Of a stretch of 64,000 bases of DNA, positions 4,458-11,687 are shown piece by piece; the stretch's first letter is position 1; each line of letters begins with the position of its first letter. The position numbers and the translations under genes are program-made. This DNA is from Minisyncoccota bacterium. GTDB taxonomy: Bacteria; Patescibacteriota; Microgenomatia; UBA1400; PJMF01. Under the pieces are notes generated by a model. It did not search any database and was not told the DNA's origin. It saw only the letters and a program-made list of their open reading frames with translations. The stretch is taken from NCBI GenBank assembly GCA_009991965.1, contig JAACWQ010000003.1:15274-79273 (forward strand). The letters are read 5' to 3'.

Positions 4458-7454
4458 TTACAACTCCAAAAATTGCAAATTACGAATTTCTGCCATAACA
4501 GTTTTGATTAATTCTGAAAGATCTGCGACAGCAGAATCAGTCAGCTCAAAAGAGCGGGTAACAATTTTGCCACTCTCACGATGAGGTTCGACAAACTCAA
4601 ACACACCTTCTGTAACGACAGGTCGAAAGGAAGGATCTAGATCGGCTAGTAATTTGTAAAATAATAACTGTCTTTTGTACGGTCCGCGAATACTTTCGGG
4701 TAACGCCTGTTCTCGCTCAGAAAGTCCAGCTGCCTGTGTTGTACCCTCAATATCTCCGATGCTCCGCTGTCTACCAGTTTTATAGTCAATAACACGAACA
4801 AGTTTTTCTTTCTTATCAATCCAATCCACTCGATCAATACGCCCACTTAGTGCAATATCATCGAGCATGGTGGTAGAAAAGCCTGAGCCAAAAAATCGCT
4901 CAATAAAAACTGGCTCAGCCACAAATCTTTCAGGCTCCTGGTAGTAAGCTGCTAGGAGCCTCTCTCCAGAAGCAACTCTACGCTCCAACTCATCTGTAAT
5001 CAACAATTCTCTTTGCAGCGCTTCGACGAATACTTGTTGTGCTGCCGCAAGACTCGGCTGCGTTCCACTGTCAGATATTTCTCGAAAGACAAACTCCAGT
5101 GCTTTGTGTACTGCAGAGCCAAACGCCATCGGAGCAGGCTTTGCTTGTGGCAAACGTAGCAGTACGTCTTGAATAAAGTCCTTTGGATCGTGCAAGTACT
5201 TATTGAGCGACGTAACAGAGAGTCGAAAATCTGTGAGCAGTGAAGAAAGATACTCTTTCTCTGTCGGAGAATAAGTGCTCGATAATTTTGGCAAAACAGA
5301 AGACTCAAGAAACTTTTCCTTCTCAGCTTCATCAAGCTCGACTTTCACTTCTGTTTCGGAAAGTGCATTCATCTCTGCCAAAAACTGTGTTGGTATGGCG
5401 GCTTTTTCTTTACCAGACTGCAAAATAGTTTTCGAGTATGTTGCTGTAAACTGTTTTTTTGCTCTAGTGAGTGCTACATAAAACAACCTACGATCTTCTG
5501 CTAATCGCTCTGTGCTATCACCCACGCTGGTGAACCGGAGTACTGAGTCAGGCAGTGTCAATAATTGTGGTTTGCGCGCATTGCCCCAAACCCCGTCTAG
5601 GCTGTGTACTAAAAATACATACTCCCATTCACGACCCTTGGCCTTATGCCCAGTTGTAACTTCAATTGCTTGTGTTTCTGTTTGCAAGTACGCTGCCTCA
5701 AGACGAATAGTGCGCTCTTGCATGATTGATACCGCACGTACAAACTCTCGCAGGCCAAATGTATGGTCGCTATAACTGAGTTGTTTTGCAGTCTCACTCA
5801 GCGCTTGAATTTCTGCCAAATAGGTATATTTCTCTGGTTGTTTGAGCAGCCAATCGAGATATCCTGTATCAGTGAGAAGAGTAGTGAACCAATCGGGAAA
5901 TGAGAGTTGGCGCTCTGTCACGCCGAGCTCTTTCAACTTAGAAAGTGCTGCAAGAATAGGTTCTGACACCGAATTTTCTGACTTAGAAAGCAGCTCAAAA
6001 AGAGTGATGCCTTCTTTGCCAGCTTGGCGAGCGAGCGTCCAAAGCTCCACACGCGATAAGTCAAGCCACGGAGCACTCAATACAGTAAAGAGCTCGTGTC
6101 CATCACCTCCCGATCGTAACTCTAAAATAGTTTGCAAAAAAGCCAAAACACCAAGAATATGTGTTTTTTCTAACACGCTCGTACCACCAGAAACACTACA
6201 CATAATACCTTGTGCCAGCAACACTTCGGCCACCGCATGAACTTCGCTATTTTTGCGACACAAAACGACTATTTCTTCCGGTAGAACTCCTTGTGAAAGC
6301 AACTCTCGTAATCGCTTTGCTAGGAAAATGTGCTCCAACTGCTGGGTATCTGCAACGACCGTCTGCGCTCCGTCTTTTTCTTTTGAAACTGCTAGCAATT
6401 GCGTACTCAGACCTTCGCGTAAATGCGCTGGCAATGACTCCGGCAAACTCGTATGCGTTGTCAACGAAAATGCAGCGTCGTACAAAAATTGTGGACAACG
6501 ATATCCTGTCTTGAGCGTGACCAACGTAGCAGCGGGGTACAGTTCCAGAAACCTGTAGGTATTTTCGAGTGACGCACCTTGAAAACGATAGATAGCTTGG
6601 TGCGGATCACCCACTACAAACACATTTGCATCTGCTCCCCAAAACGCCGCCAATTGCTCCACAAGCGAGTTTTGGGCCGTATTCGTATCCTGATATTCAT
6701 CGACCATAACGTACAAAAATCGCTCCTGACAAATCGTCAAAAAGTCAGGAAATTCTGCAAATGCACGTAGCACAAATAGAATCATGTCTTCAAAATCAAA
6801 ACGAAGTTTTTCTCGCAAGGCCAATTCATAAGCAGTGAAAACTTTGAGCAACTCCTGATTCTTCTCTTTGTTGCGTGCGAATTTGATCTTACCCGCCTTT
6901 GTTGTTGGCTCGGCATCTGGCGCAAATGATCGATCGATAATTTCTGCAAATGCAGCTGGTTCAATACCTTCTCGCTTGAGATCGCTAATTGCCTTCATTG
7001 CAGACGGCACATACAACATTGACTGATTAAGCGGTTTGAGAATATCGAGTGGCAACGTCTCAAACAATGAGTGCAAAATTTCTGAACGCTCAAGTTCAGT
7101 CAGCGGCTCACTTTCTTTTGCAATCGGGAAATACTCGGGATACTCTTTGATGAGTGCTGTGCAGAAGGCATGAAAGGTCGTAATGGGCACACCATATCCA
7201 GCTGCGCCAATCAGTGAAATTAATCTAGTACGCATCTCGGTGGCTGCTGCGTCAGTAAATGTCAGCGCCAAAATACTCGACGGAGGTGTATCCGTTTGTT
7301 CCAAGATCCGCGCAATTCTAAGCGAAAGCACCTGCGTCTTGCCCGTACCTGGACCAGCCAGAACCATAACTGGGCCGTCAATCGTATCGACTGCAAGTTT
7401 TTGGTCTTCGTTTAGTTGCTGGTAGGCGGTGGAAAAGGATTGCGGTGCGGACAC
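4458..7454 (-). CDS. UvrD/PcrA/AddA-type SF1 helicase with a C-terminal RecB-family PD-(D/E)xK nuclease domain
   Basis: Motifs present: Walker A 'AGPGTGKTQVL', 'VDEYQDTN', 'VGDPHQAIYRFQGA', and helicase motif VI 'TGHKAKGREWEYVFLV'. The C-terminal nuclease has 'RIDRVDW...VIDYKTGR' and 'QLLFY'. There are no Cys-rich Fe-S motifs. The start codon is GTG. Confidence 0.8.
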   Translation of the reverse strand: MSAPQSFSTAYQQLNEDQKLAVDTIDGPVMVLAGPGTGKTQVLSLRIARILEQTDTPPSSILALTFTDAAATEMRTRLISLIGAAGYGVPITTFHAFCTALIKEYPEYFPIAKESEPLTELERSEILHSLFETLPLDILKPLNQSMLYVPSAMKAISDLKREGIEPAAFAEIIDRSFAPDAEPTTKAGKIKFARNKEKNQELLKVFTAYELALREKLRFDFEDMILFVLRAFAEFPDFLTICQERFLYVMVDEYQDTNTAQNSLVEQLAAFWGADANVFVVGDPHQAIYRFQGASLENTYRFLELYPAATLVTLKTGYRCPQFLYDAAFSLTTHTSLPESLPAHLREGLSTQLLAVSKEKDGAQTVVADTQQLEHIFLAKRLRELLSQGVLPEEIVVLCRKNSEVHAVAEVLLAQGIMCSVSGGTSVLEKTHILGVLAFLQTILELRSGGDGHELFTVLSAPWLDLSRVELWTLARQAGKEGITLFELLSKSENSVSEPILAALSKLKELGVTERQLSFPDWFTTLLTDTGYLDWLLKQPEKYTYLAEIQALSETAKQLSYSDHTFGLREFVRAVSIMQERTIRLEAAYLQTETQAIEVTTGHKAKGREWEYVFLVHSLDGVWGNARKPQLLTLPDSVLRFTSVGDSTERLAEDRRLFYVALTRAKKQFTATYSKTILQSGKEKAAIPTQFLAEMNALSETEVKVELDEAEKEKFLESSVLPKLSSTYSPTEKEYLSSLLTDFRLSVTSLNKYLHDPKDFIQDVLLRLPQAKPAPMAFGSAVHKALEFVFREISDSGTQPSLAAAQQVFVEALQRELLITDELERRVASGERLLAAYYQEPERFVAEPVFIERFFGSGFSTTMLDDIALSGRIDRVDWIDKKEKLVRVIDYKTGRQRSIGDIEGTTQAAGLSEREQALPESIRGPYKRQLLFYKLLADLDPSFRPVVTEGVFEFVEPHRESGKIVTRSFELTDSAVADLSELIKTVMAEIRNLQFLEL

Positions 7455-7466
7455 GTTTGTATGATA

Positions 7467-8501
7467 TCAGACTGTAAAACCCATCGTTTTCATCAGAGAA
7501 ATAAGAGCAGCTTTCTCACCTTGCTGTGATACAAAATTTTCGACTGTTTCTCTCATTGATTGTGCGCGAACCATACTCGCACGAATATTGTTCTCAAACT
7601 GACAAAAATGTAGACGCATTTTATCTATTTCAGACTGACTAAGTTCGTTTTTCTCATTAAGTCGGTACATAAGTTTTTCAAATCGTAACGCTTGCCAAGC
7701 TACAAAACCTGGTTGGCCATCTAACCAATTCAACAACATATTTTTTACTTTAATACACTCAATTTCACTAATTGTTTCCAATCGCTTGGGATCCCGAAGA
7801 TTCTCATGTAATTCTCGACACTCCGCATCTCCTTCATTAAAAAAATCGCTTGCACTCTCCATCCCAGAAGTTGCTAGATCAGCTACTGCCATAATCAATG
7901 CGGGGCGAGGTATTTTATTTTCAGCTTCCAAAGCTTCATCAAAATGCGGTTGGGTAATGTACAACTCATCTCTGGTGCCACCTTCCCTCATTTCTCCGAT
8001 AGCTGCAATGAGTTTGGGATTATTTTCAAGTGCCTGTGCATAATATGGATAATCTGCAAACTTTGCCAACTTAAATTCTGGAAAAGTGAACTCAATCGCC
8101 AAAGTCACTACTCGTATGTCATCTTCTGTAAAGATTTCTACTTGTTTGTTGGCGTCACGCATGTGTTGTGCGACTGCCCGAGCACTTTGAGCCTCACTTC
8201 CTTCACTACCACTTGGCAAATCACTTGCTCGTGCCCCGCGGAAACGAGAAATTTGTTCTAATAATTCGCCTGAACTGGCATGCTGATACGACAACACTTT
8301 GTCGTGCCAAGCGATTGCAATCAAAGTCAAATATTGATCCTTGGACGAAACATCAATCGCTATAAGGATTTTCTCCATATGATGCACCACAGTGTCGAGA
8401 TGCAATGATTCATGATACTGTTTCGGATCTATTCCTCCCTCATCATGCTCCTCGCCGTGAATTTTAAATCCCGCCGCAATGATTCCTTCCGCTGTTGTCA
8501 T
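7467..8501 (-). CDS. Acidic hypothetical protein with a possible N-terminal HD-domain (H...HD) phosphohydrolase signature
   Basis: 'HLDTVVHHMEKIL' followed by '...IAIAWHDKV' fits the H / HD spacing of HD domains. It lies 12 nt upstream of the helicase-nuclease gene on the same strand. Confidence 0.3.
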   Translation of the reverse strand: MTTAEGIIAAGFKIHGEEHDEGGIDPKQYHESLHLDTVVHHMEKILIAIDVSSKDQYLTLIAIAWHDKVLSYQHASSGELLEQISRFRGARASDLPSGSEGSEAQSARAVAQHMRDANKQVEIFTEDDIRVVTLAIEFTFPEFKLAKFADYPYYAQALENNPKLIAAIGEMREGGTRDELYITQPHFDEALEAENKIPRPALIMAVADLATSGMESASDFFNEGDAECRELHENLRDPKRLETISEIECIKVKNMLLNWLDGQPGFVAWQALRFEKLMYRLNEKNELSQSEIDKMRLHFCQFENNIRASMVRAQSMRETVENFVSQQGEKAALISLMKTMGFTV

Positions 8502-8615
8502 AAACAGATTGGAAACTGCTTTATTCTCAGGTGCTAATAATTCAGTGATTGGTTCAGGCGTAGTAGGTATCCTTTATCAAAAGTATTGATTAGTCAATTA
8601 TTATCATAGCGGGAA

Positions 8616-8822
8616 TTATCGCCCTGATTTTATCTCTTGTTGCAAACGATCAATCTGCCGAGCTGCTCGCTCGCCGTCTTGTTTAAATCTGCTAGACAAT
8701 GGATCGGCACTGGCAAACTCTGCACGAGCCAATTGGCGGCGCTTGGCAATGGCGGATTTGAGGCGGGCTTCAAGGGCTTCTGCGCGGTGTTGGCCAAAGG
8801 TAGTGGGAGTAGAATCTGACAT
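8616..8822 (-). CDS. Small helical/coiled-coil hypothetical protein, GC-rich
   Basis: This is a 68 aa ORF starting at the internal Met (MSDSTPTT...). It lies immediately downstream of the HicA-like gene. Its composition is distinct from the AT-rich islet. Confidence 0.3.
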   Translation of the reverse strand: MSDSTPTTFGQHRAEALEARLKSAIAKRRQLARAEFASADPLSSRFKQDGERAARQIDRLQQEIKSGR

Positions 8823-8823
8823 T

Positions 8824-9078
8824 TCAACAACAATCTTTAATCTCTTTTTTACTAAAACCAAAACACATCAGCTCTCTCTCAATAATTTGATGCAAATTTC
8901 CATGTTCAAAATCATGGCGAGGAACCATAATAAATGGTCTCTGATTATCTACAATCGGCACTCTGCTTGGATGCCGATATTTATAATGACCACCCCGACC
9001 AGTCCCCACATCTAAAACAAAACCAAGACACTCAAGCACAGCCAATATCTTCTTTCTTTTTCTGGGAAGATTGCCCAT
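8824..9078 (-). CDS. HicA-family (YcfA-like) mRNA interferase toxin-like protein
   Basis: The pattern 'KILAVLECLGF...GRGGHYKYRHPS...IMVPRHD...GNLHQII' matches the HicA consensus (GSHH..HP...VPxH...GTL..I). It is 84 aa. Confidence 0.55.
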   Translation of the reverse strand: MGNLPRKRKKILAVLECLGFVLDVGTGRGGHYKYRHPSRVPIVDNQRPFIMVPRHDFEHGNLHQIIERELMCFGFSKKEIKDCC

Positions 9079-9084
9079 GAGATT

Positions 9085-9435
9085 CTAGGCGAAAGCCAAT
9101 CCTTTGGGATACACAAACTGTGTTTTTTTGCCTGGCTTCATGTTTCTTGGAAAAAAATGGTTTTCTGTATTCTTCGCTATATACCTCGGCACATCAAAAT
9201 AGGTGAAAATTGCGTCATTTACCAAATCTATAGTTGTCTGTTCATCATTAAGCGGAGCTATAACATATAAACCAGGATATTCTGCGGAGTTTATTAAAAA
9301 AGTTTTATTTTTTTTATCAATTTTTGTATCAAAATCTATACTACGCGGTAAAGGAAAGCTATATTTGGCACGCAAAATCTTGTACTGAATGTATTGCACA
9401 AATTCTGCTAGGTGTTCTTGAATTAAAATTAGCAT
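9085..9435 (-). CDS. Hypothetical cytoplasmic protein (islet gene)
   Basis: This is a 116 aa low-GC ORF with no recognisable motif. It lies 6 nt upstream of the HicA-like gene. Confidence 0.35.
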   Translation of the reverse strand: MLILIQEHLAEFVQYIQYKILRAKYSFPLPRSIDFDTKIDKKNKTFLINSAEYPGLYVIAPLNDEQTTIDLVNDAIFTYFDVPRYIAKNTENHFFPRNMKPGKKTQFVYPKGLAFA

Positions 9436-9512
9436 AAGTGGATTGTAACAAAATATTGGTTGTTTTAATACAAAGCAGAAGATTAGAGGCTGGGTGCTTA
9501 ATAAATAGAATT

Positions 9513-10109
9513 CTAGCGACCTCTGATATAGAGAATTATCCGCACAATAGTGCCAGAGATTTGCTCGTCACCAGCTTGTATCTGCAGTTTTTCTTGTGGA
9601 ATTTGGAAGGCATCGATCGCATATTTTCTAGAATCAGTATCAACAGCGGACCAATTCATGCCTCTACCTACTAAGCTATAGTCTCTGTTCGTATCATTAT
9701 ATTTTTGACCATTTACCACAAGCCTTCCCTGAGTATATTGGCCAAGTATCAGATATAAACTATACCAGTCATTTGAAAACTCATACTCAATTTTTGCTTG
9801 GTCACTTGGCCAGTTTGCTCGTAATTCATCAATCGTTCTGTTACTTTGAAAAACAGTTACGATCCCACAACGGGCATTGAACCACTCCCAACATTCTATA
9901 TTTTCGCCAGTGCCATATATTTTTTTTGACCCCAATGCTTCACGCAACAATATAACTTTTTGCTGCTCAGCTGTATGAAAGTTCATCCATAACTTACTTG
10001 GATTAGCAGGATAAGCAAATATATATACGCCTGCAACAAAAACCGCAAATAAAATTGCGGCTAAACAGCTAATACCTAGTATCAGTGTTACTTTTGATAG
10101 TAATTTCAT
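9513..10109 (-). CDS. Membrane-anchored (N-terminal TM) extracytoplasmic hypothetical protein
   Basis: It starts at 'MKLLSKVTLILGISCLAAILFAVFV', has a single N-terminal TM helix, then a Trp/Tyr-rich domain of about 170 aa. The gene is low GC. The ORF extends to 10154. Confidence 0.4.
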   Translation of the reverse strand: MKLLSKVTLILGISCLAAILFAVFVAGVYIFAYPANPSKLWMNFHTAEQQKVILLREALGSKKIYGTGENIECWEWFNARCGIVTVFQSNRTIDELRANWPSDQAKIEYEFSNDWYSLYLILGQYTQGRLVVNGQKYNDTNRDYSLVGRGMNWSAVDTDSRKYAIDAFQIPQEKLQIQAGDEQISGTIVRIILYIRGR

Positions 10110-10446
10110 TTGTCGGTGTTGTGAAATGAAATCATAACTGATATTCAGATACAAAAGCCTATAGCTTTAGACAGTGCTGATATAACCAAATTTAGTTTAA
10201 CTTAATTTTGAAAAATTGGAATAGTTAGTAAAATCCAATTGTTACCAAAATAGTCTTTAAAACCAAGTATCTAAATCAAAACGCTACTAACCTCAACTGA
10301 TATGTGAGCTTTTGACCTCCTTTTTTACTTTTTTTATACATTGTCTGTTCTGATAAAATTATTGACTTGATTTTCTATTTCTATAACTGTGCAAATGTAA
10401 GTATCCCAAAATTCTAAGTGCAAAACAAGTTGAATAATAAGCCTTG

Positions 10447-10520
10447 TCGGGGTGACAGGACTCGAACCTGCGATCTCGCGACCCCCAGCCGCGCATTCTA
10501 GCCATCTGAACTACACCCCG
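10447..10520 (-). tRNA. tRNA-Pro (anticodon GGG)
   Basis: Manual fold of the reverse complement: acceptor CGGGGUG/CACCCCG, D-arm GUUC..GAAU, anticodon stem CGCGG/UCGCG with loop CUGGGGG, T-arm GCAGG-UUCGAGU-CCUGU, discriminator A. CCA is not encoded. Confidence 0.85.
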
Positions 10521-10640: not shown

Positions 10641-11687
10641 ATGACAAAACTACCAATCAAAAAAGAAACTGTAGAAGCACCTGTAAGCGACGAACAGGCC
10701 GCAAAAAGACAGGCCGTTTCTATCGCTATGCAGCAAATTGAGAAAGAGTTTGGCAAAGGCTCGATTATGAAAATGGGCGACTCTCTCAAACACATGGCAA
10801 CCATGCCAGTGATCTCTTCTGGCTCCTTAGCACTCAACTTGGCCTTGGGTGTTGGTGGCTATCCCAAAGGCAGAATTATTGAAGTATATGGTCCAGAGGC
10901 ATCGGGCAAAACCACACTTTGTCTGCATGCAATTGCAGCTGTGCAAAAGCAAGGTGGCACCGCAGCCTTTGTAGACGTAGAGCACGCGCTTGATCCACAG
11001 CGCGCAAGAAGGATTGGCGTCAATCTTGATGAATTATTGATTTCACAACCAGACTATGGAGAACAAGCACTCGAGATTGCTGAGACGTTAATTCGCTCTG
11101 GAGGTGTGGATATTGTTGTTATCGACTCTGTCGCAGCCCTGGTGCCAAAATCAGAGATTGAGGGAGAAATGGGCGATGCCCAAATGGGCGTGCAAGCGCG
11201 ACTTATGTCTCAGGCTATGCGTAAATTGACCGCTGCTATCAGCAGAACCAATACACTGGTGATGTTTACCAATCAAATTCGGATGAAAATTGGTGTCATG
11301 TTTGGCAGTCCAGAAACAACCACTGGTGGTAATGCACTCAAATTTTATGCCACACAACGATTAGACATTCGCAAAATCGGCAACATCCAAGAAGGTGAAA
11401 AAGTCGTCGGCAGTCGTCACCGTGTTCGAGTTAAGAAAAATAAGGTTGCACCGCCATTCCAAGTGGCCGAGTTTGACATGGACGAAAATGGTATTTCCAT
11501 GACCGGAGATACAGTAGACATCGGTGCGCTAGAAAATGTTATAGAAAAGAGTGGCAGTTTCTATAAGTATGGTGGCGAGGTGCTTGCGCAAGGTCGTGAA
11601 GCGACCAAAGCATACCTGGCTGAACACCCAGATTTACTCAAGAAAATACAAAAAGAAATCTGGCAAAAAATTAAGCAGTCTGATTGA
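10641..11687 (+). CDS. recA: Recombinase RecA
   Basis: Walker A '[10 protein letters not shown]', '[10 protein letters not shown]' and '[21 protein letters not shown]' match RecA over its full length. Confidence 0.95.

Follow-up and report, generated by a model that had tools for sequence, protein, structure and literature searches.

A probable hicBA toxin-antitoxin pair adjoining a strain-variable slot at the tRNA-Pro(GGG) gene in Candidatus Pacebacteria

Introduction

We analysed an AT-rich stretch at positions 8824-10446 of a 64 kb piece of bacterial DNA (hereafter the window), lying at the 3' side of a gene for tRNA-Pro(GGG). A contig in the metagenome-assembled genome (MAG) GCA_002772675.1, from Candidatus Pacebacteria of the candidate phyla radiation (CPR), matches the window, and identical contigs occur in several groundwater metagenomes. 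Along the minus strand, the tRNA gene is followed by a non-coding tract, by genes for proteins of 198, 116, 84, 68 and 344 amino acids (aa), and then by a gene for a UvrD/PD-(D/E)XK helicase; recA (10641-11687) is transcribed divergently from tRNA-Pro(GGG). A sequence-only reading of this DNA had taken the 198-, 116- and 84-aa genes for one degraded mobile islet inserted at the tRNA. Here we report that the stretch is divided between a variable slot abutting the tRNA and a pair of genes kept in a sister species, and that this pair probably encodes a toxin and antitoxin of the HicA and HicB families. The features are collected in Table 1.

Table 1. Features of the locus in order of position; names of protein functions are putative
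Feature	Position	Strand	Basis or remark
344-aa protein gene, no family match	7467-8501	-	sister species has an HhH-GPD glycosylase gene in its place
68-aa helical protein gene, GC 0.53	8616-8822	-	starts 2 nt past the hicA-like stop; lies among low-GC genes
hicA-like toxin gene, 84 aa	8824-9078	-	starts 6 nt past the hicB-like stop
hicB-like antitoxin gene, 116 aa	9085-9435	-	N-terminal helix and partial RNase-H-like beta-beta-beta-alpha-beta domain (predicted)
TGTTACAAT, extended -10-like	9442-9450	-	6 nt from the hicB-like ATG; alignment of upstream regions; kept in the sister species
ORFan gene, 198-aa protein with N-terminal membrane anchor	9513-10109	-	cargo that the slot now carries
AT-rich non-coding tract, GC 0.28	10110-10445	-	composition; within the genome-specific slot
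tRNA-Pro(GGG), intact	10446-10520	-	ARAGORN; Rfam tRNA, 56.8 bits; fixed edge of the variable slot at its 3' end, 10446

Results

Composition of the stretch

The contrast in composition with the flanks that the sequence-only reading had described was reproduced. GC content is 0.346 at 8824-10446 against a window mean of 0.445 (z = -4.8 for 1623-nt windows, standard deviation 0.021), which makes this the lowest-GC stretch of its size in the 64 kb; 0.04% of 1623-nt windows are equally low. All parts share in it (0.38 in the 84-aa gene, 0.33 in the 116-aa gene, 0.38 in the membrane-protein gene and 0.28 in the non-coding tract), compared with 0.46 in recA and 0.45 in the helicase gene. GC at third codon positions (GC3) is likewise 0.28-0.32 in the three minus-strand genes versus 0.40-0.44 in recA, rny and the helicase gene. 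A second low-GC patch in the window, near ~30 kb, consists of ordinary small genes. The earlier reading had ended the string of genes at 8824 and thereby overlooked the 68-aa gene, which directly follows.

The 84-aa protein resembles HicA toxins

Profile searches with the 84-aa protein returned the Pfam family HicA_toxin (PF07927), below its threshold, and the PHROG family phrog_353, annotated as 'toxin', at 1.8e-4. Seven cluster relatives were found at 60-90% identity, five of which carry PF07927 in precomputed annotation (homologs 73-90% identical), and one relative has been named YcfA/HicA-like by JGI. Residues G27, R28, G29, H31, P53 and H55 are invariant in eight aligned sequences, and define a G-R-G-x-H motif and a P-R-H motif. 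When a profile of these eight sequences was used to rank the Protein Data Bank (PDB), Thermus thermophilus TTHA1913 (1whz) came first and Streptococcus pneumoniae HicA (5yrz_B) second, at weak E values of 0.12 and 0.25. H31 aligns with the histidine of G-S-H in 5yrz_B and with that of G-G-H in 1whz. The catalytic histidine of HicA has been validated by experiment as His36 in S. pneumoniae, His24 in Burkholderia pseudomallei and His23 in Escherichia coli (PMC11594946).

An AlphaFold2 (AF2) model of the 84-aa protein (pLDDT 84) predicts an alpha-beta-beta-beta-alpha core, similar to a double-stranded RNA-binding domain (dsRBD), with a short C-terminal helix; the first helix spans residues 8-17, the strands 21-22, 31-35 and 50-53, and the second helix 62-72. 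In a Foldseek search of the PDB with this model, the sole confident match was S. pneumoniae HicA (5yrz_B; probability 0.99, TMt 0.71). The matches to Pfam and PHROGs, the profile ranking, the predicted fold and the invariant motif lead us to accept the protein as HicA-like, in agreement with the sequence-only reading. Two other observations were set aside. A phmmer search of the PDB with the 84-aa protein returned glutamyl-tRNA synthetase (GluRS) only, which we take as a chance match, and the seeming loss of hicA from two loci (L008 and L009) was a difference in gene calling, the DNA being identical.

The 116-aa protein belongs to a probable HicB-like family

Single-sequence searches of Pfam, NCBIfam, PHROGs and PADLOC with the 116-, 198-, 68- and 344-aa proteins gave nothing usable. 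The 116-aa protein has four close relatives; in public records both it and its 84%-identical relative are entered as 'hypothetical protein'. A profile built from these five sequences, searched against 1.8 billion representative proteins, retrieved 45 proteins at E <= 0.001, of which 43 were small (92-145 aa). The remaining two, the giant proteins P0014 and P0022, were rejected as repeat-driven artefacts. The family shares the core 'LPxxI ... SPDYPGLxTxA ... ELxxxxNDAIxTYFDVPR'. Pfam PF15919 (HicB_lk_antitox) was matched by 17 of 47 aligned family sequences, with a best E value of 4.4e-6, and a few others matched DUF1902 or UPF0150; one member has been named 'HicB family antitoxin [Patescibacteria group bacterium]' by NCBI. 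Against the PDB, the family profile reached E. coli HicB (6hpb_B and 6u0i_A, E 0.003), B. pseudomallei HicB (6g1c and 6g1n) and TTHA1013 (1wv8).

The AF2 model of the 116-aa protein (pLDDT 83) predicts a helix at residues 2-20, strands at 32-40, 45-50 and 57-61, a long helix at 65-79, a short helix and a final strand at 104-108. Such a partial RNase-H-like arrangement is the fold of the HicB N-domain (PMC11594946), and in Foldseek searches HicB chains ranked highest in probability (6u0i_B, 0.84; 6g1c_V, 0.63). Neither a helix-turn-helix (HTH) nor a ribbon-helix-helix (RHH) DNA-binding domain was found in the protein or its family by Pfam, in the family alignment or in the AF2 model. Absence of such a domain is common among HicB proteins, as is the hicBA gene order (PMC11594946). 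The missing domain thus excludes the canonical autoregulating subtype and not membership of the HicB family.

By family profile and predicted fold, the 116-aa protein is probably a divergent HicB-like partner of the HicA-like protein. The earlier statement that the locus lacks a recognisable HicB partner holds for recognition from the single sequence and fails biologically, since the family reaches HicB and is followed by a HicA-like open reading frame (ORF) across metagenomes, as described below.

The two genes are kept together

The genes stand in antitoxin-first order (hicBA), with a gap of 6 nt between the hicB-like stop and the hicA-like start. We scanned metagenomes with a narrower alignment of the 116-aa family (A5) and obtained 28 loci, two of which were cut off by contig ends, leaving 26 that were informative. 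A HicA-like ORF of 76-89 aa lay directly downstream on the same strand in 24 of the 26 (27 pairs, locus L104 having two); the exceptions were L105 and L123, where no HicA-like ORF followed. The distance between the two genes was -14 to +12 nt across pairs, with one exception at +100 nt. These loci collapse to about 12 distinct sequence groups or contexts. The downstream ORFs share the motif '...LxKLGf...G.kH...iPRH...', and six of ten that were sampled gave sub-threshold matches to PF07927; the first HicA-like ORF of L104 has no clear G-x-H motif.

One member, L098, carries a 54%-identical homolog of the 116-aa protein with an 84-aa partner, at 69% DNA identity, among genes for two-component kinases, ThiF and an aromatic lyase. 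Comparison with the sister species gave dN/dS ratios of 0.085 for the hicB-like and 0.051 for the hicA-like gene. This purifying selection indicates that both are functional coding genes.

Upstream of the pair, TGTTACAAT is the sole sequence in common with the sister species, and no Shine-Dalgarno sequence is found there. Speculatively, it may be an extended -10 element giving a leaderless or nearly leaderless transcript.

Members of the subfamily occur less than 1 kb from tRNA genes in four of the approximately 12 contexts: beside tRNA-Pro here, and in other lineages near tRNA-Val (L102/L103), near tRNA-Trp (L104) and between tRNA-His and tRNA-Arg (L120/L122). No relatives were found in viral contigs. 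Two of these contexts deserve description. At positions 2811-6000 of L104, another groundwater contig, a small islet rich in toxins directly follows tRNA-Trp: two tandem hicB-like/hicA-like pairs around a protein with a Fic motif (HPFTDGNGRTAR), with HNH-like and PD-(D/E)XK-like ORFs upstream. At 2551-4804 of L120/L122, a Xer-like tyrosine recombinase gene abuts tRNA-Arg on the segment that contains the hicBA pair.

Homology breakpoints separate the pair from a variable slot

The sister species, a Pacebacteria of RIFCSPHIGHO2 type (loci L094-L097), has the order recA, tRNA-Pro, a variable segment, hicB-like, hicA-like, a 69-aa gene, an HhH-GPD glycosylase gene and the helicase gene. In blastn comparisons with this species, homology starting in recA breaks off at the final tRNA base (window 10446/10444). 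Nothing matches over 9453-10445; the alignment picks up again at 9452, 17 nt short of the hicB-like ATG, and runs to 8820 at 83.4% identity. Beyond the pair, DNA identity is 79% in the 68-aa gene and about 70% in the helicase gene, and the 344-aa gene is unmatched. The 993 bp at 9453-10445, from the last base of the tRNA to just before the hicB-like start, are the only part specific to this genome and comprise the membrane ORFan and the AT-rich tract.

The same tRNA junction carries other genes elsewhere. Two strains of the sister species, 99% identical to each other, diverge precisely where the tRNA ends: one has a gene for a 135-aa protein and the other has genes for a methyltransferase and a HinfI-like endonuclease. 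A NUDIX gene separates this cassette from the pair in the sister species and stands immediately ahead of the pair. Three different cargos are thus seen at one junction, in a slot of 0.4-2.1 kb. The divergent arrangement of tRNA-Pro(GGG) and recA is kept in L095 and also in L014, L015 and L016, whose RecA proteins are 73-81% identical; in each of these last three the genes past the tRNA 3' end are unrelated, and all three lack the pair. The proposal that the tRNA 3' end is a boundary is upheld: the match to the sister species breaks off at exactly this point, and the genes beyond it differ among relatives.

Taken together, these comparisons show two units side by side: a variable slot abutting the tRNA and, next to it, the hicBA pair, which is common to two species at this locus. 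They do not support a three-gene islet or operon as one unit, given that the pair and the 68-aa gene occupy the same position in the sister species under purifying selection. The sequence-only reading had named, as what would refute it, the presence of these genes at this locus in related genomes with a like composition; this is so for the pair and not for the membrane protein.

The slot and its present cargo

The present cargo of the slot is confined to this genome. The 198-aa protein, with one hydrophobic anchor at its N-terminus, is read from the ATG at 10109 chosen by gene callers; with a TTG start the ORF spans 9513-10154 and encodes 213 aa. It had no match in Pfam, NCBIfam, PHROG or PADLOC, matched only itself among 5.8 billion protein clusters, and was found by tblastn in none of the loci fetched from other species and lineages (L014-L126). 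It accompanies the pair in none of the 28 other loci.

The AT-rich tract between this gene and the tRNA is 336 nt long with the ATG start and 291 nt (10155-10445) with the TTG start, and in the latter form corresponds to the tract of 290 bp abutting the tRNA-Pro 3' end that had been described before. It has no homology to L095 or L096 and, the tRNA aside, contains no Rfam family at E <= 1. A strong Shine-Dalgarno-like sequence, GGAGGT, lies inside it at 10315-10320 on the minus strand and is not followed by a start codon within 12 nt.

No model of a tyrosine or serine integrase or recombinase matched any gene at 4458-10154 in searches of Pfam, NCBIfam, PHROG and PADLOC. The 22-nt 3' end of the tRNA has no second copy in the window, even when three mismatches are allowed, and no meaningful flanking repeats surround the stretch. 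These searches and repeat scans agree with the earlier observation that an integrase and a direct repeat of the tRNA end are both missing. The slot acts like a small integration hot spot, without the integrase and attachment-site (att) features that define a classical island.

Neighbouring genes

Homologs of the 68-aa protein (85% aa identity over 61 residues in local tblastn) were found in L094-L097 and L099 only. Its gene has a dN/dS of 0.11, and in the sister species 67 nt separate its homolog from hicA. The protein has no family match in Pfam, NCBIfam, PHROG or PADLOC and is absent beside the pair in L098; the gene is not part of the pair elsewhere. Further along, a second replaced segment at ~7441-8625, beside the UvrD-like helicase gene, covers the 344-aa gene.

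Discussion

The predicted folds and profile relationships of the two small proteins, the conserved adjacency of their genes, the purifying selection on both and the homology breakpoints around them are most readily explained together. We consider it likely that the locus holds a type II hicBA toxin-antitoxin (TA) pair adjoining a separate strain- and species-variable slot at tRNA-Pro(GGG).

Several results weigh against this interpretation. Every match to a characterised HicA or HicB protein is weak, in sequence as well as in structure. For the 84-aa protein, PF07927 was matched at E 6.6e-5 and 23.4 bits, under its gathering score of 27, and the Foldseek match to HicA has an E value of only 0.04. 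The 116-aa protein alone has no match in Pfam, NCBIfam, PHROG or PADLOC, being recognised by neither PF15919 nor PF21748; the Foldseek E value for HicB chains is about 0.4, and an hhalign comparison of the close family with one approximate E. coli HicB sequence, in which only residues 12-48 were confirmed, gave E 0.033 and a probability of 1.5%, which is too weak to count. A scan for promoters and terminators was at or below chance. On the side of the slot, neither an integrase nor att repeats were found that could account for the exchange of cargo at the tRNA end. Finally, one sister-species contig, L094, parts from L096, to which it is otherwise identical, inside the final 4 nt of tRNA-Pro (6790-7006 of L094) and enters low-complexity DNA made of G/C runs, upstream of which lie SMODS, MmeI-like and HTH genes. 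This contig may be an assembly chimera or may carry a real, larger defence insertion; as it is possibly chimeric, its apparent SMODS/MmeI-like 'defence island' was not used as evidence.

By analogy with characterised systems, the 84-aa HicA-like protein would be a small ribosome-independent RNase and a toxin, using His31 of its G-R-G-G-H motif. The 116-aa protein would bind it through the partial RNase-H-like domain and cover His31, leaving the toxin inactive; in solved HicAB complexes the catalytic histidine is buried at the HicB interface (PMC11594946). Lacking a DNA-binding domain, the putative antitoxin is unlikely to control its operon by repressing its own promoter. Given the restriction-modification (R-M) system among the cargo of relatives, the pair may plausibly help to stabilise the adjoining slot or to defend against phages.

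We weighed whether the locus might instead be an ordinary, vertically inherited core locus, in which low GC is simply usual for small or weakly expressed genes and spacers and implies no mobility. In the sister species the pair and the 68-aa gene do lie at the corresponding place, with recA/tRNA-Pro on one side and the UvrD-like helicase gene on the other, under strong purifying selection and with no mobility genes, yet the pair is missing from L014-L016 despite the retention of tRNA-Pro and recA, and it recurs in the unrelated context of L098. Moreover, in each of the three backgrounds examined the pair has a lower GC content than its host (0.30-0.38 versus 0.41-0.47), and the adjoining slot differs even between 99%-identical strains. 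Synonymous divergence also speaks against simple vertical descent. Between window positions 8824-9435 and L095 10001-10612, dS of the pair is about 0.9-1.0 (pS ~0.54), roughly half the recA value of 1.9; in the helicase and rny genes pS is ~0.77, which is saturated. The lower dS hints at a more recent exchange between the two species, or could reflect codon constraints in short AT-rich genes. On balance, an ordinary core locus appears unlikely.

The earlier view, that all three genes form one degraded mobile islet integrated as a unit at the 3' side of tRNA-Pro, accounts for several features: the whole stretch is uniformly AT-rich, with the lowest GC in the window, and begins exactly at the tRNA 3' end; its three genes lie on one strand with short gaps; and the pair is absent from the relatives with 73-81% RecA identity. 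It is largely refuted by the breakpoints, the sister species having the pair at the same locus without the membrane protein and homology returning 17 nt ahead of the hicB-like start. Together with the absence of any homolog of the membrane protein, which never stands beside the pair elsewhere, and of an integrase or att repeat, this makes a single islet quite unlikely. It is very improbable that the small proteins are no TA pair at all and that HicA-like (dsRBD-like) and HicB-like folds serve a non-toxic RNA-binding or regulatory role, or that the toxin is inactive: matches under curated thresholds, an antitoxin without a DNA-binding domain and the L104 ORF without a clear G-x-H motif would fit, but His31 and the P-R-H motif are invariant in eight homologs, tight bicistronic coupling is kept across very divergent members, and the best structural and profile matches are specifically HicA and HicB of solved TA complexes.

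Starting again from a hicBA pair beside a separate slot, a broader proposal can be made, which we regard as doubtful. In these Pacebacteria, the DNA just past the 3' end of tRNA-Pro(GGG) might be a hot spot of cassette exchange that works with neither integrase nor att site; unrelated cargos would swap at the last base of the tRNA, the inner edge being the hicB-like start here and the NUDIX gene in the sister species. The pair would belong to a CPR-type hicBA subfamily in which HicB is extended by an N-terminal helix and lacks a DNA-binding domain, and which might mark, stabilise or defend such hot spots in these tiny genomes.

The analysis has uses beyond this locus. It corrects an annotation, from a 116-aa 'hypothetical protein' to a HicB-like partner of a HicA-like toxin, and provides a compact profile (alignments A4 and A5) for a CPR HicB subfamily that current Pfam and NCBIfam models miss. 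We note also that a CPR genome, though very small, retains a slot beside a tRNA gene in which strains swap cargo, R-M genes included; this bears on how CPR episymbionts acquire defence genes.

Comparison with known systems

Tested against tRNA-associated genomic islands, the slot is alike in having its boundary exactly at a tRNA 3' end, atypical composition and strain-variable cargo that includes an R-M system; unlike them, it lacks an integrase, a direct repeat of the tRNA end and a second boundary repeat, and measures only 0.4-2.1 kb.

For the pair, E. coli HicAB (6HPB/6U0I) and B. pseudomallei HicAB (6G1C/6G1N/6G26) provide the best profile matches of the 116-aa family (E 0.003-0.11) and the top Foldseek probabilities. 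The region of similarity is the beta2-beta3-alpha1 core, 'xPDxPGxxTxxxxxxExxxxxxDAIxxxF'. Their operons are toxin-first (hicAB) and their antitoxins autoregulate through an HTH (E. coli) or RHH (B. pseudomallei) domain (PMC11594946); neither feature is present here.

In gene order, the S. pneumoniae HicBA system (PDB 5YRZ; PMC6159526) is closer. It shares the antitoxin-first arrangement, supplies the best fold match for the HicA-like protein, with His31 corresponding to the catalytic His36, and has the partial RNase-H-like N-domain in its antitoxin. S. pneumoniae HicB differs in its C-terminal RHH domain for DNA binding and dimerisation, which the 116-aa protein lacks, having instead an N-terminal helix of about 20 residues. 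The two HicA proteins are about 20% identical, the one described here being longer at 84 aa, with an extra inter-strand loop and an extra C-terminal helix.

Single-domain HicB-like/UPF0150 proteins (PF15919 and PF21748), such as T. thermophilus TTHA1013 (1WV8) with the YcfA/HicA protein TTHA1913 (1WHZ), are likewise small, have no DNA-binding domain and are encoded beside a HicA-like gene; 1wv8 and 1whz are among the few PDB profile matches of the two families in the window. From these the 116-aa protein is set apart by its N-terminal helix, by a C-terminal tail of about 30 residues and by escaping recognition by PF15919 and PF21748 on its own. Neither a hicBA order nor a HicB without a DNA-binding domain, both already described as common, will surprise a specialist in TA systems or genomic islands. 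The pair described here is probably a new and very divergent hicBA system, with a HicB that has no DNA-binding domain, of a kind that is itself known.

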